The position numbers were made by a program, and so were the translations under genes. Shown piece by piece: positions 6,211-28,081 of a stretch of 28,372 nucleotides of DNA. Location of the stretch: IMG/VR virus record IMGVR_UViG_2734482782_000001, positions 1 to 28,372 of that record; one strand, given 5' to 3'. Each line of letters begins with the position of its first letter. Position 1 is the first letter of the stretch. This DNA comes from a virus (taxonomy: Duplodnaviria; Heunggongvirae; Uroviricota; Caudoviricetes). The notes under the pieces were generated by a model, which saw nothing but the letters and a program-made list of their open reading frames with translations, did not search any database and was not told the DNA's origin.

Positions 6211-6797
6211 TAGCCGAGCCCCAGTAATGACGCCGCGTTACCCGTGATGCTTTTCAGCAGCGAGGTATTTGGCGGCTTTGTGGTTTTGGTGCCGGTATTC
6301 AGTACCGCCGACGTGCTGGCCCCGTCCTTCATGTTGGTTTTATCCGCGACGGTGATCTGCTGCGTCTGCGAGATAAGAACCTCCCTCAGGGTGAGGACGG
6401 CGGACAGGACGTTTTCGGTTGTCTTGTCTGTCGTCACTTCCATCGCGCGGATCAGCATGTTGCTGTACAGCCGTTTGCCGGTCACCACATCGAAAGGGAT
6501 ACGGCTCGCCTGCAGGTCGAGTATCTCCTGATACGTCTGCTGGGGGCTCAGACCGAGCAGACTGGTGGCCGTCAGGTTACTGGCAAAATCCAGCAACGAT
6601 CCGCCACCAGCGAAACCGACCTCCATCACCACTTCAGACGGTTTTTTGTAGGCATGGTCAGCGATAGCGGCCCCGACCTCGACAGGGTGCTCTGTTATCT
6701 CCAGCGTGTCGGTATGCTTCTCAGAAACAACCACACTGGGGACAATCATCCCTATTTTCCGGCTCTGCTGCTGAAAGAGCGTAGAGAGAATATCCAT
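6210..6797 (-). CDS. Tail protein downstream of the tape measure
   Basis: 195-aa ORF, ATG start, TAATG coupling with the TMP stop. Confidence 0.5.
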   Translation of the reverse strand: MDILSTLFQQQSRKIGMIVPSVVVSEKHTDTLEITEHPVEVGAAIADHAYKKPSEVVMEVGFAGGGSLLDFASNLTATSLLGLSPQQTYQEILDLQASRIPFDVVTGKRLYSNMLIRAMEVTTDKTTENVLSAVLTLREVLISQTQQITVADKTNMKDGASTSAVLNTGTKTTKPPNTSLLKSITGNAASLLGLG

Positions 6798-8806
6798 TAG
6801 CCCACCTTCGTTTGATTACCGCGCATGACCTGGGCGTTTGCCGACTGCTGCCGACGCTCGACCTCGGTACCGACAGAACGCGGGTCACCACCACCGTAGA
6901 TGTGATAGGTGTTTTGTTGCTGTACCTGCGCTCCCTTCCCGGGCATGTTACTCAACACCTTAGGAATGTAGTTGCGGGTTTCCTGCGGCATCAGGGCCAT
7001 TCCGTGCTTCTGCACGTTCCCGATCCCCCAGTTGTATGAGGCCAGCGCCTTGCTCAGGTCACCACCGTTAGCTTTCAGCAGCTGTGAGAGATATTTAGCA
7101 GCGGCCTGCGCGGCCTTTTCAGGATTGAATACGTCGTTCCCGCGCAGTCCCATATCACGCGCGGTACCGTCCATAAACTGAAACAGCCCTTTAGCGCCAG
7201 CGCCTGAAACAGCGAACTGATTTCCGCCCGATTCCGTTATGGCCACGCTGCGCAATAACCCCTCCGGAAGCCGATAGAGCTGCTCCAGGTTGGTTAGCAT
7301 GGGCTGCATCCATCCCAGCAGCTCAGAGCCCGCTTTGGTTGGCTGTGGCCGCTTGACTGACTGGCCGAGCTGTTCAGGCTCATCATCACCAAACCAGCCG
7401 CGCACCGTTCGGCCCACACTGCGAGGATCGAATCCCCAGTGCTCTTTAATCCAGTCGGCGGTACCGTTGGCGCTGTCTGTTACCATCGGCATCGCTGACG
7501 GATTTTCGCTGCCCTGATTGAGCATCTGTTTGCCGATGCTGGCGGCATCAGCCCAGCGGCCATCTTTAATGGCGTTGAGCAGGTCGGCGATCATATTCAG
7601 CATTTTGCTGAACTCGCCCATCTGGTCCCTGAAGTTGCTGAAATCCCACTTCAGGGACCATGATTTGGGGTCAATATTGAGCAGTTTCGCCAGCGCTTTC
7701 GCAAGGTCGTTAACGGTCGTTTTAAGGTCACGAACCATCTTCAGCGCGGCGTCGACTTCCGGTTTCCACTTGCCCCAGTCGATAAGGCTGTCGCCGCCCT
7801 CCTTCCAGGTCTGATAGTCCTCCCACAGAAGGGCAATCCCCGCCGCCAGCGCGGTAATAAGGCCAATCGGCGACATCCAGAACGTACTGTTCAGAATGCG
7901 TAGCGCAATCGTCAGCGCGCCAAACAGCGAGATCAGCTCCCGCGTTTGCTTGTCGAGTGATTGCCACCAGGTGATAAGGCTGGATGTTCCCTCAATAAGC
8001 CTGAAGAACAGCCGTCCGATGATGTCCCCGAGTGCCAGAATGCCTTTTATGGCTTTCGTCAGGGTCTGCTCGATACGCGGGAAGTTATCCAGGATATGAC
8101 GGCGCAGCGTGTCCAGCGAACCCGCCAGGCCACCAGCAAGATTAGAGCCGATTTTGTCACGGGCCATGCCTGCCATCGCGCCGAACTCGCGCAGGGAGGT
8201 CATGAATTTGTTGGAGCTTCTGGCCGCCTCGTCAGCATTGAAGCCGATAGCCTTCGCCATTGCGCTGTACTGCCCGGAGAAACCGCCAACACCCCGGCGC
8301 ATCGCCATGAGGGTATTTTCGTCAATGCCCAGCATCTGCGCATACTGGTTAGCCCGGTAGTACGGCATGCTGCTGAGCTTCTGGCCGACACCCGTAAAGA
8401 TAGCGGCCATATCGCGCATGTTACCGCTGGCGTCACGGGTCTGTACACCCAGGCGATTCAGGAAGCCTTCCGCACCCGGATTGTTACGAACAAACCGGGA
8501 GAGGCTTTCCAGAGAGGAGCGCGCCGCGTCTACGCTGCCGCCTACCTGCGAAACCGCATAGCCAATAGACTGAATCCCCTGAACCGTCGCGCCGGTGCGC
8601 TGTGACGCCCAGTAGAGATTATCCAGACCGGAGGCGATTTTAGCCGTAAAGGCCACCACAGTAAGCGCGGCACCTTCGACGGCCAGCCCCATTTTGATGG
8701 CGTTTGCGGTCGTACCTGCGAGAACTGAATCGAACTTTTCCGCGCCTGCTTCGTCGATATCGAAACCGAGCGAGACGAGAAAATCTTTAATAGTCTCAGC
8801 GTTCAT
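6797..8806 (-). CDS. Tail tape measure protein with C-terminal lytic transglycosylase (SLT)-like domain
   Basis: 669-aa ORF, ATG with GGAGAGAGG RBS. Alanine/glycine-rich helical N-terminal half, a hydrophobic segment (LISLFGALTIALRIL...GLITALAAGIALLW), and a C-terminal ...AITESGGNQFAVSGAGAKGLFQF...YNWG segment resembling SLT catalytic motifs. Lies downstream of the chaperone with frameshift. Confidence 0.75.
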   Translation of the reverse strand: MNAETIKDFLVSLGFDIDEAGAEKFDSVLAGTTANAIKMGLAVEGAALTVVAFTAKIASGLDNLYWASQRTGATVQGIQSIGYAVSQVGGSVDAARSSLESLSRFVRNNPGAEGFLNRLGVQTRDASGNMRDMAAIFTGVGQKLSSMPYYRANQYAQMLGIDENTLMAMRRGVGGFSGQYSAMAKAIGFNADEAARSSNKFMTSLREFGAMAGMARDKIGSNLAGGLAGSLDTLRRHILDNFPRIEQTLTKAIKGILALGDIIGRLFFRLIEGTSSLITWWQSLDKQTRELISLFGALTIALRILNSTFWMSPIGLITALAAGIALLWEDYQTWKEGGDSLIDWGKWKPEVDAALKMVRDLKTTVNDLAKALAKLLNIDPKSWSLKWDFSNFRDQMGEFSKMLNMIADLLNAIKDGRWADAASIGKQMLNQGSENPSAMPMVTDSANGTADWIKEHWGFDPRSVGRTVRGWFGDDEPEQLGQSVKRPQPTKAGSELLGWMQPMLTNLEQLYRLPEGLLRSVAITESGGNQFAVSGAGAKGLFQFMDGTARDMGLRGNDVFNPEKAAQAAAKYLSQLLKANGGDLSKALASYNWGIGNVQKHGMALMPQETRNYIPKVLSNMPGKGAQVQQQNTYHIYGGGDPRSVGTEVERRQQSANAQVMRGNQTKVG

Positions 8807-21066: not shown

Positions 21067-22071
21067 TCAGTCTAAATCCATCTCCACCACTTCACCGAAC
21101 AGGTGACCGTAAACGTCCATTGTGGTTTTGATGTTCGAATGCCCAATAAGTCGGGAAACCTTCAGAATATCGACGCCTTTGTTTGCCAGGCGAGATACAG
21201 CAAAGTGGCGAAGATGATGGAATCGTTTAATGCCATAGTCGTTCAGGGTTCTGACGAGAACGCCCTGAGTGCCGTAGCTGGTAGCAAGGCATGCGCCGGT
21301 AAACTGGTTGCAGATAAGAGGCTCAGAGGTACCGAGTTTACTTTTATCCAGCAACGCGAAAAGCTCACGCGGCATCCGTACCCGGCGCTCCACTCCTCTT
21401 TTCAGCCCCTCATGTATAACGCCGTCAACAACATGCCCCCGGATGTCGATCCAGTCGGCTGACACGTCGTTATAAGTAACAGCCAGAGCCTCACCGATGC
21501 GCAGGCCACAAATCCCGAGCCAGCACGCGATTCGCTCACGAACTGGCGCGTTATTCAGTAGCTCCCTGACCGATGATGATGGCGGTATGGTGATGGGTCG
21601 ACGCTTCCGGCGCGCGGGACGGTCAACAGGGTTAAAAGTGATGAGCCGTTTTTCCACCAGCAGGAAGAAAGCCGAACGAATCCAGCGATGGCAGCCGGTG
21701 CGAACCGAATCAACGATATCGCGATGGCTGATATGGAGAATATTTTTTTCCAGTATCGGCCCGTCTACAGCGAGAAGATCGTGACGGCATTTCGTATATG
21801 ACGACAGCCGTATGATATTTTTTTCCAGCTTGCCGGCCTGATACCCCAGATAAAACAGAATTAACTTTCGGAAAGTCCAGGAATGGTCTATTCCGGTCCA
21901 GCTGGCAGTTCGACAATCCAGCTCGATATTCTGTTTTTGCCAGAAAAGATGTGCGGCATCATCAATATTCTTAAAAATGCGGCGGCGTCCATGACCGGAT
22001 TTTTCATCCTTCCAGTGGACGTAATATTTTGATTGTCCATTGGCATCAGTGGATTCTTTTATCGAAGCCAT
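21067..22071 (-). CDS. int: Tyrosine-type site-specific recombinase / integrase
   Basis: The track starts at TTG 22080; the ATG at 22071 has a GAGGA RBS 9 nt upstream. C-terminal HLRHFAVSRL and GHSNIKTTMDVYGHL match the H-x-x-R and catalytic Tyr pattern of the tyrosine recombinase family. Confidence 0.8.
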   Translation of the reverse strand: MASIKESTDANGQSKYYVHWKDEKSGHGRRRIFKNIDDAAHLFWQKQNIELDCRTASWTGIDHSWTFRKLILFYLGYQAGKLEKNIIRLSSYTKCRHDLLAVDGPILEKNILHISHRDIVDSVRTGCHRWIRSAFFLLVEKRLITFNPVDRPARRKRRPITIPPSSSVRELLNNAPVRERIACWLGICGLRIGEALAVTYNDVSADWIDIRGHVVDGVIHEGLKRGVERRVRMPRELFALLDKSKLGTSEPLICNQFTGACLATSYGTQGVLVRTLNDYGIKRFHHLRHFAVSRLANKGVDILKVSRLIGHSNIKTTMDVYGHLFGEVVEMDLD

Positions 22072-22250
22072 GCTGAACAATCCTCACTCAAAAAACATTA
22101 TCAAAGCCACTCGCCGAATGGATTTGATAATGCTAATAAAAATGTCTCGGAAGCTATCCTTCTGTGCTCCCAATCAAGCTTTGCCGTTGCACCCTCATCA
22201 TATGAAAAAGTTCATGATACATTATGCTTTTATCAACTGAGGTGATCGCG

Positions 22251-22502
22251 ATGTCTGAACTCGAAAGTAGAGTTAATGAACTTGAAACAGAAAATGAAGA
22301 ATTGAAGTTAGAAATTCAAGCTTTGCGAATTGCAGTGGTAACTATCTCTTCTGTCGTAAACGAGGCTGTCGGCAAAACGGCTGGCTTAATGGGTAACACC
22401 ATTGAGGAAAGTTTGATTTTTGATGAAGACTTAGACCAAGATGAAGAGCGCTTCAACAAAATGAAATCAAAATTAGTTCACCTTTTAGGCAAAAAAGAGT
22501 AG
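22251..22502 (+). CDS. Small acidic coiled-coil protein, function unknown
   Basis: Only convincing plus-strand gene. ATG at 22251 with GAGGTGA RBS (the track's upstream ATG at 22224 has no SD). 83 aa, glutamate-rich heptad pattern (ELESRVNELETENEELKLEIQALR). AT-rich; convergent with the lysis operon. Confidence 0.6.
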   Translation: MSELESRVNELETENEELKLEIQALRIAVVTISSVVNEAVGKTAGLMGNTIEESLIFDEDLDQDEERFNKMKSKLVHLLGKKE

Positions 22503-22533
22503 TAACCACCTTTCCCTCTTGTTTTTAATAAAA

Positions 22534-22558
22534 TCGTCGCCAGCAGTGACTGGCGGCG
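22534..22558 (-). terminator. Terminator-like hairpin between convergent Rz and the plus-strand small gene
   Basis: 9-bp stem CGTCGCCAG/CTGGCGGCG with one mismatch; on the minus transcript it is followed by AUUUUAUUAAAAA. Confidence 0.45.
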
Positions 22559-22572
22559 AAATTGACTTATGT

Positions 22573-23118
22573 TTATTTCCTTTCATCCTCTATTTGACGT
22601 ATTCCAGCCAGCTGATTATTCGCTTTTTCGATGGCGGCCAGTAGCGGCTTGATCCAAAGAACAGCCTGGCAATACGTCAGCGAGCTGGTGGAAGCGGCAC
22701 TATCACCGGCTGCGTCAGCGCTCCCGGAATCGGTGTGCATTGCGCTGGCACGTAGACGGTGCGTGTATTCGAGCAGCCCACCAGCGACATCAGCAGGAAC
22801 AGGCAGATCACAGGTTTTTTCACGGCGGAGAATCTCCCGGTACTCCATAACAGTTTTATCGGAGCTGGCATCAATCAATGAGTTAAGTCGGCTGGCGTTT
22901 TCGGCCACCTGGTTAAACCGGTTGAAGTTGAAAGCCTGAGCAGCGATAACCGTCCCCTGCAGGTTGTTGTCACTGCGCAGAACGTCATTATCACTCTTCA
23001 GCGTAGCAACGTCAGAGCGGCTGTTTGCAAGCAGGACACACAGCCCGGCGACTACCGCAATGACGGCAACCAGCAGTATCAGACGCCATGAGGCTTTGAT
23101 ATCTGTAAAGGTGATCAT
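22573..23118 (-). CDS. Rz-like inner-membrane spanin (i-spanin)
   Basis: 181-aa ORF, ATG overlapping the endolysin stop (ATGA). N-terminal TM helix WRLILLVAVIAVVAGLCVLLA followed by a periplasmic helical domain. Last gene of the lysis cassette. Confidence 0.7.
   Translation of the reverse strand: MITFTDIKASWRLILLVAVIAVVAGLCVLLANSRSDVATLKSDNDVLRSDNNLQGTVIAAQAFNFNRFNQVAENASRLNSLIDASSDKTVMEYREILRREKTCDLPVPADVAGGLLEYTHRLRASAMHTDSGSADAAGDSAASTSSLTYCQAVLWIKPLLAAIEKANNQLAGIRQIEDERK
22677..22871 (-). CDS. Rz1-like outer-membrane lipoprotein spanin (o-spanin), embedded in Rz in another frame
   Basis: ORF entirely inside Rz. Lipobox L-V-G-C preceded by a hydrophobic stretch (KKPVICLFLLMSLVGC); proline-rich mature part (PAQCTPIPGALTQPVIVPLPPAR). 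Start codon uncertain. Confidence 0.55.
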   Translation of the reverse strand: MPAPIKLLWSTGRFSAVKKPVICLFLLMSLVGCSNTRTVYVPAQCTPIPGALTQPVIVPLPPAR

Positions 23119-23639
23119 TTCAGACCATCCAGGCAGAGCTGTTTCTCTGCGTCGCGCCGCTTAACCAGGCCCGGGAGAATAGTCTTCCCTGCATACACCC
23201 AGCGGGGGAACTGGTTACAGGCCGATGGCCACGCCGATTTCTGCTCGCGAAATAATGCAAACATTGTCGACTGCTTCATCGTTGGGCACCCGACGTTAAA
23301 GGTAATTGACGTTACCGCAGAAAAGGTATTGTCGCTGAGATTTTTGCCGTTGGCATACCGGTTAACACAGGATTCAGCATCGAGGATATTTTTTTCCCAT
23401 TCCGCCGCGATCTGCTGGTCATTTTTAACTGTGCCGGGTTTAACCCCGTGGGTGTTGCCCATGCCATCGGTGAGCACACCGGCGGGGCACACATAAGGAT
23501 CACGACGACATGATTCCGCATTACCGATGAGCTCAAGGCCGCGCTCATTGGTTCGAACATGCCCGTTACCGAGCACTATCGCGATGATCGCAGCAACTGA
23601 ACAAACAATACCCGCAGCACCTGCCTTTTTATTTTGCAT
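23115..23639 (-). CDS. SAR endolysin (T4-lysozyme-like, phage 21 R-type)
   Basis: 174 aa, ATG start. N-terminal weakly hydrophobic Gly/Ala-rich signal-anchor AGAAGIVCSVAAIIAIVLG, then a lysozyme-like domain. C-terminal RWVYAGKTILPGLVKRRDAEKQLCL resembles the phage-21 lysozyme C-terminus recalled from memory. Confidence 0.7.
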   Translation of the reverse strand: MQNKKAGAAGIVCSVAAIIAIVLGNGHVRTNERGLELIGNAESCRRDPYVCPAGVLTDGMGNTHGVKPGTVKNDQQIAAEWEKNILDAESCVNRYANGKNLSDNTFSAVTSITFNVGCPTMKQSTMFALFREQKSAWPSACNQFPRWVYAGKTILPGLVKRRDAEKQLCLDGLK

Positions 23640-23946
23640 TTGCGTTTATCCTGTTAATGGCATCTGTAACAACCTTGACGCTTGCCGGACGATCCGCAGG
23701 AGGTAATTTTCGGGCATCATCAAAATATTTTTCCAGCAACTGAGTGCGGCGTTGGTCCTCTTTATGGAGTTTTCTGGCGTCAAGCCGACCGGATATAAAA
23801 GAGGCCAGAGAAAGAAGTACGCCAATCAGACCGAAAAACATGAAAACCATGTCCTGGGTTGAAAATCCCAGAGCCGCTGATACAGCTGCCAGCCACGCGA
23901 AAAACTGGGTAATTACATTACCTGACTGGTCATTCATACGATGCAT
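23629..23946 (-). CDS. Holin with dual-start (MHRM) motif
   Basis: 105 aa; two hydrophobic TM segments (ITQFFAWLAAVSAALGF and MVFMFFGLIGVLLSLASFI) and a charged C-terminus. Two in-frame Mets at codons 1 and 4 with a GGAGGT SD. Overlaps the endolysin start by 11 nt. Confidence 0.7.
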   Translation of the reverse strand: MHRMNDQSGNVITQFFAWLAAVSAALGFSTQDMVFMFFGLIGVLLSLASFISGRLDARKLHKEDQRRTQLLEKYFDDARKLPPADRPASVKVVTDAINRINANAK

Positions 23947-24007
23947 TCCACACCTCCGGGTCCGGGGTGCTGTGTGTTAAAAAAAGAAGTTAAATTTTAC
24001 GGAAAAC

Positions 24008-24559
24008 TTACGGCAGAGCATTTGATAGAGCCTCTTCGAGGCCGAGACGCCGGAAGCACTTAAGCGCTGTCTGGCGGCTGCTGTTGATGATATTTACCTT
24101 ACCGGCCAGCGCTCTGGCAGTATTGGCAAACTCACCGCGCCATCGCGTGACACTCTCTGCTGTAGGGTTATCCAGCCCGACGTGATCACCATGCCAGTGA
24201 CTGCCGCAATTAATGGAGCAGTCAAACCCTAACAGGATGATGTTTTTCGCCCCCAGGCTGGCAGCAAAGAGAATCGAGCGCTGCCCGGAGTTGAAGGCCC
24301 ACCGGGTATCTGTATCAAACAGATTTAGCCCATAGCGTTTATGAGCCCGGTAATTACAGGTCCAGCGAGAGGCGGAGGACGGTAGAACATCGATGTTTGC
24401 ATCCCACCAGCGCAGATCACCCGCGTAAATGTATTCACAATCAGGCACGGCTTGCCAGGTGGAGTTAACAGCAATAACCGGCAGCCCCGATCCGGAGCTC
24501 AGTTCGCAATCTGATTTATTGAGAGACGGGCCGGATGCACAAATGATGAATGTATTCAT
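24008..24559 (-). CDS. Hypothetical cargo protein with GPSL Rossmann-like motif (DUF115 / GT42 glycosyltransferase-like)
   Basis: 183 aa, ATG start. N-terminal IICASGPSL, central ILFAASLGAKNIILLGFD, and HWHGDH; these resemble motifs of CstII-type sialyltransferases / MAF-DUF115 proteins as I recall them. Lies between the tR'-like terminator and the holin. Confidence 0.55.
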   Translation of the reverse strand: MNTFIICASGPSLNKSDCELSSGSGLPVIAVNSTWQAVPDCEYIYAGDLRWWDANIDVLPSSASRWTCNYRAHKRYGLNLFDTDTRWAFNSGQRSILFAASLGAKNIILLGFDCSINCGSHWHGDHVGLDNPTAESVTRWRGEFANTARALAGKVNIINSSRQTALKCFRRLGLEEALSNALP

Positions 24560-24582: not shown

Positions 24583-24605
24583 AAAAAAACCCGCTCGGAG
24601 GCGGG
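24583..24605 (-). terminator. Rho-independent terminator (tR'-like) downstream of the Q-like gene
   Basis: Plus AAAAAAACCCGCtcggagGCGGGTTT; on the minus transcript the GC stem is followed by U7. 24 nt upstream of the 183-aa cargo gene. Confidence 0.7.
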
Positions 24606-24612
24606 TTTGATT

Positions 24613-24690
24613 TCGTGCAGGCGCAATAACCTACGATTTGAAGCATACACGACAAGTTCGGACAAAATCAAGCTTAATGTGGCTAATATG
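24613..24690 (-). promoter_or_regulatory. Candidate late promoter (PR'-like) / qut region
   Basis: Intergenic region between the Q-like stop and the terminator. Minus strand contains TTGATT-N16-TGTATGCT (weak -35/-10 matches). Assignment by analogy with the lambdoid Q-PR'-tR' layout only. Confidence 0.3.
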
Positions 24691-25494
24691 CTAAATTTTG
24701 TTCACATCATCACGAAAGCTCGTTGCGTCCTGAAACGCCGAGTCTGCTTTTTGTTCTTCTCTGTAGCAGACGTCGACAAGCCCCTCCAGAAACGGTTTCC
24801 AGTTACGGGTCCACGTTCTGACGTGCAGATCCGGGACTCGCTTCAGTATCGCTTTATAGGCTGCAGTAGACGGCACCCCAGAAAATCCATTTCCGCTGCA
24901 GCGCTCGCAGGTTTTAAACACCGGCGCGCCGCGCTCGCTTGTGGCTTTGCGGTCGAGCACCTCACCTTTGCCACCGCAACGGCATCGAGCCAGTAGCTCA
25001 CCTTTACCGTTACATGCCGCGCATGTACGCTTGACCAGTTCGTGCTTGATTTTCGGCGGTACGATTTCCATTCCGTCAGAGTTGAATATTCCAGGATATT
25101 TGATCACATCCTCATACTGAGAGGTTAATCCGCTGCCGCTGCAGCTGTGACACGTCACGCTGGTTTCCGCTGAACGGGAGTATTCTGCAAAGGCGAATTG
25201 TGCGAGCACCAGCATGCACCAGCCAAACTCTCCTGCAGCTGCTTTACGTACATTCCTGGGCGCTGATTCCATTGCATGACGCGCCAGAGCCTGTACAGCC
25301 AACTGCTCATCGCTTTTGCTGATCCCGGTCTTACCAAAGAATGCAGCCAGACCAAACCGCGCGCGGCTGCTGGTGGTACCAATGGCCGCCATAACATCGG
25401 TGCCAGTGATACGATCTGGAGAGGTTCCTTTCACGTCGTCGCTGATGTGCATCCCCTGAGGGCTGAAGTGTTTAAGTGAAGCTTCCAGTTTCAT
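24691..25494 (-). CDS. Putative late-gene antiterminator (Q-like) with DnaJ-type zinc finger
   Basis: 267 aa, ATG overlapping the primase stop (ATGA). Four CxxCxGxG-type motifs (CHSCSGSG, CAACNGKG, CRCGGKG, CERCSGNG). Sits immediately upstream of a promoter/terminator unit and the lysis genes. Confidence 0.5.
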   Translation of the reverse strand: MKLEASLKHFSPQGMHISDDVKGTSPDRITGTDVMAAIGTTSSRARFGLAAFFGKTGISKSDEQLAVQALARHAMESAPRNVRKAAAGEFGWCMLVLAQFAFAEYSRSAETSVTCHSCSGSGLTSQYEDVIKYPGIFNSDGMEIVPPKIKHELVKRTCAACNGKGELLARCRCGGKGEVLDRKATSERGAPVFKTCERCSGNGFSGVPSTAAYKAILKRVPDLHVRTWTRNWKPFLEGLVDVCYREEQKADSAFQDATSFRDDVNKI

Positions 25495-26468
25495 GCGGCC
25501 ACCTGCTGCTTTTTATAGAATACCAACTCACGAACCTGATCGCCGTTCATGAGCATGTCGTTGAAGTCCCCGTTATCCGGGTAGTAGATGCTGATTTTTT
25601 CCAGGTCATTTTTTGCCAGTAAGTTGGCATGGGCACATTCCGTGGCCGCAGCCAATCCGGTGGCGCTGTTTACGTCTCGATCTGCGAAAATAATCAAATT
25701 CTTCACACCTGCAGGAACTCGGAATTTCTTCATGAATCCGCTGGTCATGGTGGCCCAGGTGTTAACGTTGTACAGCTGCTTGCAGGAAAGAGCCGTTTCG
25801 ATACCCTCGGCAATTCCGAGGGTCGTCGCTACCGGGAACATTCGAATAGCGACGGAACGGGCATGATCCAGATAGCTTTCGTCCTGAAGAGATTTCTGCC
25901 GCTTCGCTCCGGAAGAATCCCTTAGTTGGGCTTTCTGATTGCCGTCCAGTAAGGTTCTGTGCAGATAGCAAAGCTCGCCTTTGTCGTCAGTTGCGAGTGA
26001 ATACAGACACTGGTAAACCTTACCGCCGTAGCGTTGTTTATCATTGAACTTCACTGCCTCTTGTGGGAGCTGATAAATTCCCCTGGCCTGCAGATAATCC
26101 GCTCCGGTAGTTCCTTTCAGGTTGACCAGTTTCGAAAATTTGGACAGAACCCGATCACGGGCGCTTACTGCATCTGAAGTGCGCGGGAACGCTTCGCGGG
26201 TAAAGTTATTACCAATCAGCTGGTCTATTTCCCTGCAAATTTCATTGAATGGCTTCCCTTGTGTCAGAGTGACAAGCTTCATTCCGTCACCGCTGCCGCA
26301 GGTACAGATCCATGTTCCCCGGCCGTCCCGGTCATCAATACGCAGCTTTCCCCGCGCACCACATACCGGACATTCACCTTTAAAATGATTTCTGGCATTA
26401 ATGGGAGGTAACCCGAAGTGCTCAAAAATCATTGCCCATTGACCTTTTGCCGCTTCTGCCGTTTTCAT
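25491..26468 (-). CDS. DNA primase (zinc-ribbon plus Toprim domain)
   Basis: 325 aa, ATG overlapping the helicase stop. N-terminal Cys cluster CPVCG...CTCG. Toprim signatures IAEGIETALS (conserved Glu) and IIFADRDVN (DxD). Confidence 0.75.
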   Translation of the reverse strand: MKTAEAAKGQWAMIFEHFGLPPINARNHFKGECPVCGARGKLRIDDRDGRGTWICTCGSGDGMKLVTLTQGKPFNEICREIDQLIGNNFTREAFPRTSDAVSARDRVLSKFSKLVNLKGTTGADYLQARGIYQLPQEAVKFNDKQRYGGKVYQCLYSLATDDKGELCYLHRTLLDGNQKAQLRDSSGAKRQKSLQDESYLDHARSVAIRMFPVATTLGIAEGIETALSCKQLYNVNTWATMTSGFMKKFRVPAGVKNLIIFADRDVNSATGLAAATECAHANLLAKNDLEKISIYYPDNGDFNDMLMNGDQVRELVFYKKQQVAA

Positions 26469-28081
26469 GCTCTTTTTCCTAACTGCTGTTTGATATCGCT
26501 AATCGCTTTCTGTGCCTGCTGTACTGAGGATGGGGCTGCCATGCTTGTTGCCTCCTGCAGGCGCTTGGCCTTCTCCTGCCCTTTCGCATACGCAATCAAT
26601 TTGTGTCGGATGAAATTAGAGACGGTTGGCGTGATCTCCATCGGGAAATCGCTTAACCCGTTAGGCCACTCGTCAAACCGTTCGCGAAAGGTATTTGCGC
26701 ACCAGCCATCGCTGACGGGCTTTTTCCCCTGCGATACGCGCTGACGCTGATAGAATTTGATCTGACTCCACCAGGCCTGTTTCTCTGCCTTCGTGGGCTG
26801 ATGCTGGTTTTTACCCAGCTTTTTGAGTTTGCGGCCGGTGTCGGTGTCGACGTCCTCACCGCCCAGCGGCTTATGCCCACATTTCGGGCATACATAGACG
26901 CCAGCTGGCTTCATGTAATGGCATTGAGAGCATTCGTGTGGCAGCTTTTCGGCCCGTTCCTCAGCTGCGCGGCGCGCGCTTTCCTCCATGCCGTCAGACT
27001 TACCGGGAAGATCGTCGTACTCGATTGAATCCGGATAACCCAAACGGTGCACGGTACCGCTATGATCGAAGATGAGGCAGGACTCTTTACCCGGTGCGGT
27101 GCGCAGGCCACGCCCGAGCGCCTGCAGCCAGCGAATTTCGCTTTTTGTTGGCCTGGCGTAGATGATGCAACGAACGTCACTATCGAAGCCGGCCACCAGA
27201 ACGCCCACACTAACGATAATTTTCGTTGCACCGGTTTCAAAGCGGTGAATGATGGTCTGGCGTTCATCCACTGGAGTGTCGGCGGTCATGATCTCAGCGT
27301 TAACACCCGCAAGGTTAAACTGGATTGTCAGGTAATTGGCGTGGGCTACGTTGACGCAGAAAGCGATGGTAGGAAGATCCCGGCCATTCTCCAGCCAGTT
27401 CTGTACGATGTCGCCCACCAGCGTAGAGCCGCACATGATTTCAGCCAGCTGCGTTTCGTTGTAATCGCTGCCGTACTCAAGCGATGCTTTGGTTTTAACA
27501 CCTTTCAGATCCGGCTTAGTTGGCGCGTAAAATTCGTATTTACTCAGATCGCCACGCTGGATTAACTCGCCGATGGTGGTCGGCTTAATCAGTCGGTCAT
27601 AGTATTTGCCCAGGAACGGGGAAAACGGAGTACCCGACAGGCCAATCACCTTTACGCCTTTGCCGCGCAGACGTTCGATATCCTTCAGGATGCGTTTTTT
27701 ACGCAGGTGTGCTTCGTCGATAATCAGCAGATCGATATTTTCAGGAAAAACACGACGAATAAGCGTGTCGGCGCTGGCAATCTGAATTTTCCGGTCCGGA
27801 TCGTAGTTCGGGTGATCTGCCCAGATATAACCGATTTCATCCCCCGGTAACCCATACTCCACGAACCGATTAGCCGTCTGACCGATCAGGATGGTGTACG
27901 GTGCACAGAACAGGACGCGCATACCACGGCTGACAAACCCGGCGACGATGAAGGCGGCCAAACCCGTTTTACCGCTACCGGTTGGCGAGTACACCATGAA
28001 GGTGTCGTTTGCCTTCCAGTCACGGCGCAACATGTTTAGCGCTCGTTCCTGTGCAAAATTCGGCGTGATCGTCAGCTCCAT
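26465..28081 (-). CDS. SF2 DEAD/DEAH-box replicative helicase with C-terminal zinc ribbon
   Basis: 538 aa, ATG with GGGGG SD. Walker A SPTGSGKT, motif II LIIDEAH, motif III SGT, motif VI QALGRGLR, and C-terminal CSQC...CPKCGH. Confidence 0.85.
   Translation of the reverse strand: MELTITPNFAQERALNMLRRDWKANDTFMVYSPTGSGKTGLAAFIVAGFVSRGMRVLFCAPYTILIGQTANRFVEYGLPGDEIGYIWADHPNYDPDRKIQIASADTLIRRVFPENIDLLIIDEAHLRKKRILKDIERLRGKGVKVIGLSGTPFSPFLGKYYDRLIKPTTIGELIQRGDLSKYEFYAPTKPDLKGVKTKASLEYGSDYNETQLAEIMCGSTLVGDIVQNWLENGRDLPTIAFCVNVAHANYLTIQFNLAGVNAEIMTADTPVDERQTIIHRFETGATKIIVSVGVLVAGFDSDVRCIIYARPTKSEIRWLQALGRGLRTAPGKESCLIFDHSGTVHRLGYPDSIEYDDLPGKSDGMEESARRAAEERAEKLPHECSQCHYMKPAGVYVCPKCGHKPLGGEDVDTDTGRKLKKLGKNQHQPTKAEKQAWWSQIKFYQRQRVSQGKKPVSDGWCANTFRERFDEWPNGLSDFPMEITPTVSNFIRHKLIAYAKGQEKAKRLQEATSMAAPSSVQQAQKAISDIKQQLGKRA

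Follow-up and report, generated by a model that had tools for sequence, protein, structure and literature searches.

The gene analysed here lies in the late region of a tailed phage genome (IMG/VR record IMGVR_UViG_2734482782_000001). The window, by which we mean the whole stretch of DNA that was analysed, has 28,372 nucleotides. The gene, hereafter referred to as the window gene, is an open reading frame of 183 codons with an ATG start, located at positions 24008 to 24559 on the minus strand. Its product contains the motifs IICASGPSL, ILLGFD and HWHGDH at residues 5-13, 107-112 and 121-126, respectively. The reading frame and the three motifs are all present as described in the initial annotation, which also placed the gene in the slot where lambdoid phages carry stx. 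This placement is borne out by the minus-strand order of Q gene, terminator hairpin, window gene and holin gene, with matches to PF03589 and to PHROG families. The region is composed of the following features.

26465-28081, minus strand: helicase gene.
25491-26468, minus strand: Toprim primase gene.
24691-25494, minus strand: gene of a Q-type antiterminator (Pfam PF03589, E 4e-51; phrog_127, E 2e-96).
24609-24690, minus strand: spacer between the Q gene and the terminator, with a candidate late promoter read by eye.
24587-24608, minus strand: intrinsic terminator hairpin AAACCCGCCTCCGAGCGGGTTT with a T-run, placed like tR' and near-invariant in relatives.
24008-24559, minus strand: the window gene.
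24012-24026, minus strand: deletion scar, delimited by local alignments to the related locus L028 (homology stops at 24026 and restarts at 24012).
23990-24012, minus strand: remnant of the 3' end of a methyltransferase gene (…FRKI*), aligned to positions 8985-9007 of L028.
23944-23977, minus strand: conserved linker and ribosome-binding region that ends at the holin ATG, from comparison with relatives.
23629-23946, minus strand: holin gene, the first of the lysis cassette (phrog_1350, E 4e-18).
23115-23639, minus strand: lysozyme gene (profile matches).
22573-23118, minus strand: Rz spanin gene (profile matches).

The terminator hairpin (24608-24587) stops about 20 nt 5' of the ATG of the window gene, and the whole spacer between the Q gene and the window gene, which has 134 nt, is nearly 100% conserved among relatives. 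Within this spacer, the segment TTGATT-18 nt-TATGCT is a putative late promoter; in a promoter consensus scan it scored below the threshold and was hence not flagged. The base composition of the window gene is that of its surroundings and gives no hint of a recent foreign origin. The Q protein has a segment, residues 158-203, that resembles a DnaJ-type CXXCXGXG zinc finger, with a PF00684 score of 23.9 bits that is below the cutoff. Four related loci, L006 (6828-7000), L008, L009 and L021, have about 170 nt of additional conserved leader between the terminator and the ATG, and L009 and L021 have small open reading frames inserted at this same site. An Rfam search with the leader of the relatives gave nothing convincing (the best was Trp_leader, 23 bits, below the cutoff), and an Rfam search of the window gave no match. 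At the other end of the gene, the linker ACACACAGCACCCCGRACCCGGAGGTGTGGAATG (23944-23977), which occupies the same place in L007, L008, L009 and L028, precedes three unrelated types of holin. It looks like a common ribosome-binding region and, in addition, a joint at which recombination exchanges lysis modules.

Sequence comparison identifies the window gene as an intact member of the family PHROG 4603, which includes PmgO of phage P1 and orf7 of phage D3. The protein matches phrog_4603, labelled 'alpha-2,3-sialyltransferase', with an E-value of 3e-51, residues 8-179 being aligned to positions 2-174 of the 178 in the profile. A large protein database contained 88 homologs at E≤1e-5 (best E 2e-116), nearly all of 180-190 amino acids, and an exhaustive profile search at E≤1e-3 retrieved 6,752 cluster representatives (50% identity), mostly of about 180-210 amino acids. 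Because of these homologs, and of a dN/dS of about 0.16 among close copies, we conclude from the sequences that this is a real gene and that a chance open reading frame is excluded. The phage family is very large and was catalogued before, and the window gene is nothing out of the ordinary within it. A tblastn search of phage genomes matched 70 records, with identities to the window protein of 47% in Citrobacter phage phiNP, 45% in Pseudomonas phage PAJU2 (gp10), 43% in jumbo Klebsiella and Serratia phages, 38% in P1 PmgO and 33-35% in D3 orf7. Caulobacter and Brevundimonas phages are also found among these matches, and the bacterial hosts named in the list are all Gram-negative. An alignment of 61 homologs has 17 invariant columns, and the window protein has all 17 of these residues: N32, D48, W51, W52, S91, G92, L109, G111, D113, H121, H123, G124, H126, N131, W140, N159 and S161.

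The length of the protein is conserved across PHROG 4603, so it is full-length and not truncated. A truncated sialyltransferase, one of the possibilities raised by the initial annotation, is thus rejected, since 183 amino acids is the normal size in this family. A minimal enzyme, which the annotation also raised, agrees with a single-domain protein in a compact family. An identity as a conserved lysis accessory protein was also rejected, since the family has further members among head-tail genes and in the pmg operon of P1. A role as a defence gene was discarded as well, the PADLOC defence models having no match to the window gene or to any of its cassette partners described below.

The labels attached to these proteins are of varying quality. 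In phiNP, the true PHROG 4603 homolog (OR565852.1, 23752-24288; L002, 5001-5537) is wholly unannotated, and the label 'alpha-2,3-sialyltransferase' sits instead on the adjacent PmgP-like gene (phrog_2111). The homolog in the jumbo phage Eowyn is labelled 'structural protein', for which no proteomics source could be traced. A search of the literature found no functional study of the family, the sole experimental data being that P1 does not need pmgO, pmgP and pmgQ to form plaques (PMC10695390). A virion role, if there is one, is therefore non-essential.

According to the structural model, the window protein consists of one domain with the sialyltransferase/Maf/MptE-like fold that is common to Maf proteins, GT42 Cst enzymes and MptE kinases. 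Structure comparison shows that this fold is shared with two solved members of PF01973, Maf (PDB-id 5MU5) and MptE (PDB-id 8SD5), and the best structural match is Maf, ahead of MptE. The protein has the nucleotide-binding motifs GxGPS, (T/N)SG and GxD that go with a fold of the sialyltransferase type. In the alignment to Cst-II, GPSL corresponds to residues 10-13, NSG to residues 131-133 and GFD to residues 152-154. The resemblance to GT42, DUF115 and MAF proteins that had been proposed from the motifs consequently holds for the fold class, and sequence does not establish formal membership of GT42 or PF01973. Profile searches gave the strong match to phrog_4603, but PF01973 (MptE-like, formerly DUF115) scored 30.6 bits (E 3.6e-7) and did not reach its gathering cutoff of 34.6 bits, and a profile search against PDB sequences matched Cst-II with an E-value of 0.2-0.4, which is not significant. 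Many close homologs have a precomputed PF01973 match, with 41-45 bits in some relatives. A search of NCBIfam with the window protein gave no match, and a fold search of the BFVD library of viral structures matched uncharacterised proteins only.

After the GxD motif comes a segment of only about 13 residues, in which H121, H123 and H126 are invariant. This HWHGDH loop is located outside the Pfam domain, is family-specific, and has the lowest confidence in the model (pLDDT about 70). In Cst-II, the lid region carries the catalytic histidine and the phosphate-binding tyrosine residues. The long lid of Cst-I and Cst-II from Campylobacter jejuni, as well as their C-terminal membrane-association region, is absent from the window protein, which is about 100 residues shorter and has the short HWHGDH loop in place of the lid. 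We know of no CMP-sialic acid pool in the host, and the label 'sialyltransferase' is therefore probably wrong on the sugar. The Maf flagellin nonulosonic-acid O-glycosyltransferases have about 600 amino acids, with additional N- and C-terminal domains, whereas the window protein corresponds to the catalytic core alone; its identity to the 632-residue chain of 5MU5 is 16%. Furthermore, Maf proteins are encoded in flagellar glycosylation loci, while the window gene is in a phage late operon, between the Q gene and the holin gene. The archaeal MptE (6-hydroxymethyl-7,8-dihydropterin pyrophosphokinase) and thiamine pyrophosphokinases are a poorer structural match than Maf and differ in their setting, as the window gene lacks neighbours for cofactor synthesis and the neighbours and fusion partners of its family are sugar-modifying enzymes.

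Five E. coli genomes carry a copy of the window gene that is 97% identical and follows the same Q gene. In these genomes the copy is followed by a gene of the family phrog_6804, encoding 313 amino acids, then by a gene for a methyltransferase of 204 amino acids (PF13489, phrog_6564), and then by the holin gene. The same order, PHROG 4603 member, phrog_6804 and phrog_6564, is found in about 56 of the 80 closest viral loci. The phrog_6804 protein has a heptosyltransferase fold of the GT9/TibC type and matched TibC with 18.0 and the heptosyltransferases of LPS with 17.2. Despite this strong structural match, hhalign of the GT9-like family against WaaC of E. coli gave no match. More distant phages have the three genes in other places: orf7, orf12 and orf13 of D3 lie among head-tail genes, gp10 to gp12 of PAJU2 lie between the head-closure and tail-terminator genes, and Eowyn carries the same three-gene cassette. 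Many phages with Gram-negative hosts have it in their late or structural regions. A second layout, seen in P1 and phiNP and in one of the 80 closest loci, comprises PmgO, PmgP (phrog_2111, a distant paralog) and PmgQ (phrog_1962, 'glycosyltransferase'); in P1, the pmg operon is located downstream of a late promoter and of C1 operators. Other neighbours, assigned by eye from sequence motifs only, are GT4-like and PmgQ-like in EP_H11, and GT8-like and GT9-like, next to an annotated methyltransferase gene, in Caulobacter phage CcrSC. The family is thus present in virulent phages (Eowyn and CcrSC) and within head-tail gene clusters. Rare domain fusions join its members to a TylF/Methyltransf_24 O-methyltransferase, a GT2-like domain (just below the cutoff), a second MptE-like domain or Ig-like domains.

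In CcrSC, a virulent giant siphovirus (L088, 5007-9493), the family member comes straight after the tail genes and opens a larger cluster, which comprises four proteins of about 280 amino acids, at least two of which look glycosyltransferase-like by eye, and a methyltransferase; the cluster ends at the endolysin gene. In E. coli DX6 (NZ_CP126345.1; L003, 4980-5671), the gene equivalent to the window gene is fragmented, with a piece of 97 amino acids annotated, and the GT9-like and methyltransferase genes look intact, which is the reverse of the pattern in the window.

In the window, the cassette is reduced to its first gene. A tblastn search of the whole window with the partner proteins found no gene of any of the four partner families. 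At the scar, 13 bp stand in place of 1,450 bp that hold the GT9-like gene and nearly all of the methyltransferase gene. The stop codon of the window gene (24010-24008) occupies the place of a TAC codon in the methyltransferase gene, and the segment TTTCCGTAAAATTTAA (24005-23990), just 3' of the reading frame, corresponds to the last few codons of the methyltransferase, followed by the pre-holin linker of the intact cassette. In the relative L014, the equivalent gene reads through its stop into '…QVFRKI*', the C-terminus of the methyltransferase in frame. The window gene is thus the sole survivor of a three-gene cassette, the 1,450-bp deletion being directly visible at the nucleotide level. Among the 80 closest viral loci, about 15 carry a scar identical to that of the window, three (L040, L042 and L043) have a different deletion junction, and another three (L023-L025) retain a short fusion in which about the first 26 codons of the GT9-like gene are joined to about the last 40 codons of the methyltransferase gene. 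From these distinct junctions it follows that at least three independent deletions have occurred, each of which spared the first gene.

The lone gene appears to be selectively maintained. Among 15 distinct lone alleles, all of them intact, dN/dS is 0.164 (dS 0.148), compared with 0.146 in close cassette alleles and 0.045 in a second lone lineage. These values indicate that purifying selection has continued after the loss of the partners. In the gene tree, lone and cassette alleles are interspersed, and part of the low dN/dS may therefore have been imported by recombination with cassette copies.

Taken jointly, these data lead us to a reading that we hold to be, on balance, somewhat probable: the window gene encodes an intact, late-expressed glycosyltransferase of the PmgO family that uses a CMP-ulosonic acid, is the only survivor of its cassette, and has a phage protein as its favoured candidate acceptor. 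Transcription of the gene would be confined to lytic growth, where it would stand at the head of the late transcript that depends on Q. A lytic-cycle role is suggested by the terminator that requires Q, by the late promoter and C1 operators of P1, and by the presence of the family in virulent phages and in head-tail clusters. A glycosyltransferase is suggested because the cassette partners and the fusion partners are sugar-modifying enzymes, and a CMP-ulosonic donor because such donors serve all of the closest structural relatives (Maf, GT42 and GT29). The usual CMP-sugar of enterobacteria is CMP-Kdo. In these hosts it would probably also be the donor; use of CMP-Kdo by a Maf enzyme in E. coli is on record (PMC11339370). 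The ancestral cassette would have had the order of this transferase, a GT9/TibC-like enzyme of heptosyltransferase fold, and a SAM methyltransferase. As the window gene is the first of the cassette and was retained after the loss of its partners, its product most plausibly performs a first and self-sufficient transfer, in which the ulosonic acid would be put on the acceptor first; heptose and a methyl group would have come next, from the partners that are now lost. Such a role would explain why the lone gene could still work and is still kept. GT9 enzymes naturally add heptose onto Kdo or heptose, which fits the gene order of the cassette. The acceptor would be a protein made by the phage, such as a virion protein, rather than LPS; this is favoured because the two best structural matches, Maf for the window protein and TibC for its partner, are protein O-glycosyltransferases. 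In these model-based comparisons, however, the margin of protein-acting over LPS-acting enzymes is small.

Extended to Gram-negative phages in general, the proposal becomes speculative and, as a whole, rather doubtful. It would hold that a mobile late cassette builds a methylated Kdo-heptose glycan on virion proteins from the CMP-Kdo and ADP-heptose of the host, that the PmgO family is a minimal protein O-Kdo-transferase which primes this glycan, and that the window has a Kdo-only version of it.

The main alternative, which we regard as unlikely, is that the enzyme modifies the inner core of host LPS, or another envelope glycolipid, in the manner of WaaZ, which transfers Kdo III. In that case the partners, before their loss, would have supplied heptose and a methyl group, and the change of receptor could block superinfection or the sticking of phages to debris. 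The structural matches of the GT9-like partner to WaaF and WaaC are nearly equal to that with TibC (17.2 versus 18.0), which keeps an LPS acceptor plausible, and there is a weak alignment to WaaZ, with a probability of 31%. The window gene is, however, preceded by a terminator whose read-through depends on Q, and its relatives are found in late or structural regions and in virulent phages (Eowyn and CcrSC), where lysogenic conversion is meaningless. The protein-glycosylating activity of Maf and TibC also speaks for the other acceptor. Moreover, the window protein lacks membrane segments and is close to neutral in charge, whereas WaaZ, WaaC and WaaA are basic; charge is weak evidence here. Neither pI nor net charge distinguished candidates that act at membranes from those that act on proteins. 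The fold would also allow an enzyme other than a glycosyltransferase, namely a pyrophosphokinase, or some different nucleotide-dependent enzyme akin to MptE and thiamine pyrophosphokinase, with a small molecule as substrate. This we consider distinctly improbable, given neighbours that are glycosyltransferase-like proteins and a methyltransferase, and no genes of a pterin or thiamine pathway.

It could also be argued that the lone gene is a decaying and functionless residue of the deleted cassette. Both partners are lost, pmgO of P1 is non-essential, the gene is broken in E. coli DX6, and the low dN/dS perhaps derives partly from recombination. Yet the 15 distinct lone alleles are all intact at a dS of about 0.15, each of the three independent deletions leaves the reading frame whole, the dN/dS of lone alleles (0.16 and 0.045) is no higher than that of cassette copies, and 17 of 17 invariant residues are kept, so that a functionless residue seems very improbable. 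The least probable of the alternatives, and one to which we give scarcely any weight, is glycosylation of the phage DNA with Kdo or heptose as a hypermodification against restriction. There is a precedent for it, since phage glycosyltransferases put Kdo or heptose on 5hmC from the metabolite pool of E. coli and their gene clusters adjoin structural genes (bioRxiv 10.1101/2023.12.21.572611). The known enzymes that glycosylate 5hmC, however, have GT-A or T4-βGT-like folds and depend on 5hmC synthesis, and an enzyme making 5hmC was seen neither among the scanned genes of the window nor beside the cassette. The lack of PADLOC matches also counts against this alternative. Furthermore, P1 and lambdoid phages have, as far as is known, canonical DNA.

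The favoured reading, a late glycosyltransferase with a phage protein as acceptor, can be compared with known phage systems. P1 PmgO and D3 orf7 belong to the same family, have a similar one-domain size and are located in late-expressed regions, and their labels ('alpha-2,3-sialyltransferase' and 'putative morphogenetic function') are putative annotations. The company differs: P1 pairs PmgO with PmgP and PmgQ, D3 and PAJU2 have a GT9-like protein and a methyltransferase, and the window gene is alone. The cargo genes, or morons, that lambdoid phages such as those with stx carry between Q/tR' and the lysis genes occupy the same slot, with the same probable Q-dependent late expression, and the relatives of the window have further inserts at this site. 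The product of stx is a secreted toxin, whereas that of the window gene would be a cytoplasmic enzyme. Since PHROG 4603 is equally often found in the head-tail clusters of unrelated phages, the cargo position is not a defining one. Mycobacteriophages have virion glycosylation cassettes in which glycosyltransferases and an O-methyltransferase are encoded beside capsid and tail genes. The layout is analogous, with several sugar transferases and a methyltransferase, late and near structural genes, but the enzyme families, the hosts and the sugars differ, and a virion glycan in the PHROG 4603 phages is a prediction.

Overall, the interpretation in the initial annotation is partly supported. The present analysis adds the setting of the gene in a cassette, the deletion that can be read from the sequence, and a proposal on which sugar is donated and in what order the enzymes act. 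PHROG 4603 is a widespread accessory family, found in P1, D3, jumbo phages and Caulobacter phages, to which automated pipelines give the putative labels 'alpha-2,3-sialyltransferase' or 'morphogenetic protein'. The combination of a Maf-like fold, the company of TibC/GT9-like and methyltransferase genes, and the retained constraint leads to predictions on the donor, the order of transfers and the mass shifts. Should a glycan on the virion be confirmed, this would be the first virion glycosylation system for such phages and would give a function to a family of thousands of proteins that is now mislabelled as sialyltransferase. With a virion protein as acceptor, phage therapy and phage immunology would have to reckon with glycan coats on phages of Gram-negative hosts; with LPS as acceptor, the cassette would be a new route of remodelling of phage receptors during lytic growth.

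Three further features were noticed in the window. A gene for a tyrosine recombinase or integrase-like protein (21067-22080, minus strand; phrog_1, E 2e-29) is located between the lysis cassette and the terminase genes; the late region is an unusual location for an integrase, and an E. coli relative has the same layout (L001, 1106-2110). Positions 22000-22600 form an island of low GC content (0.37-0.44, compared with about 0.52 around it), which contains an open reading frame at 22224-22502 on the plus strand, the strand opposite to that of every neighbour. It encodes 92 amino acids with a coiled-coil appearance and is probably an independently acquired cargo gene. Finally, the product of the tape measure gene (6797-8806, minus strand) has a C-terminal region, residues 480-650 approximately, that resembles a lytic transglycosylase and matches endolysin and transglycosylase PHROG families.
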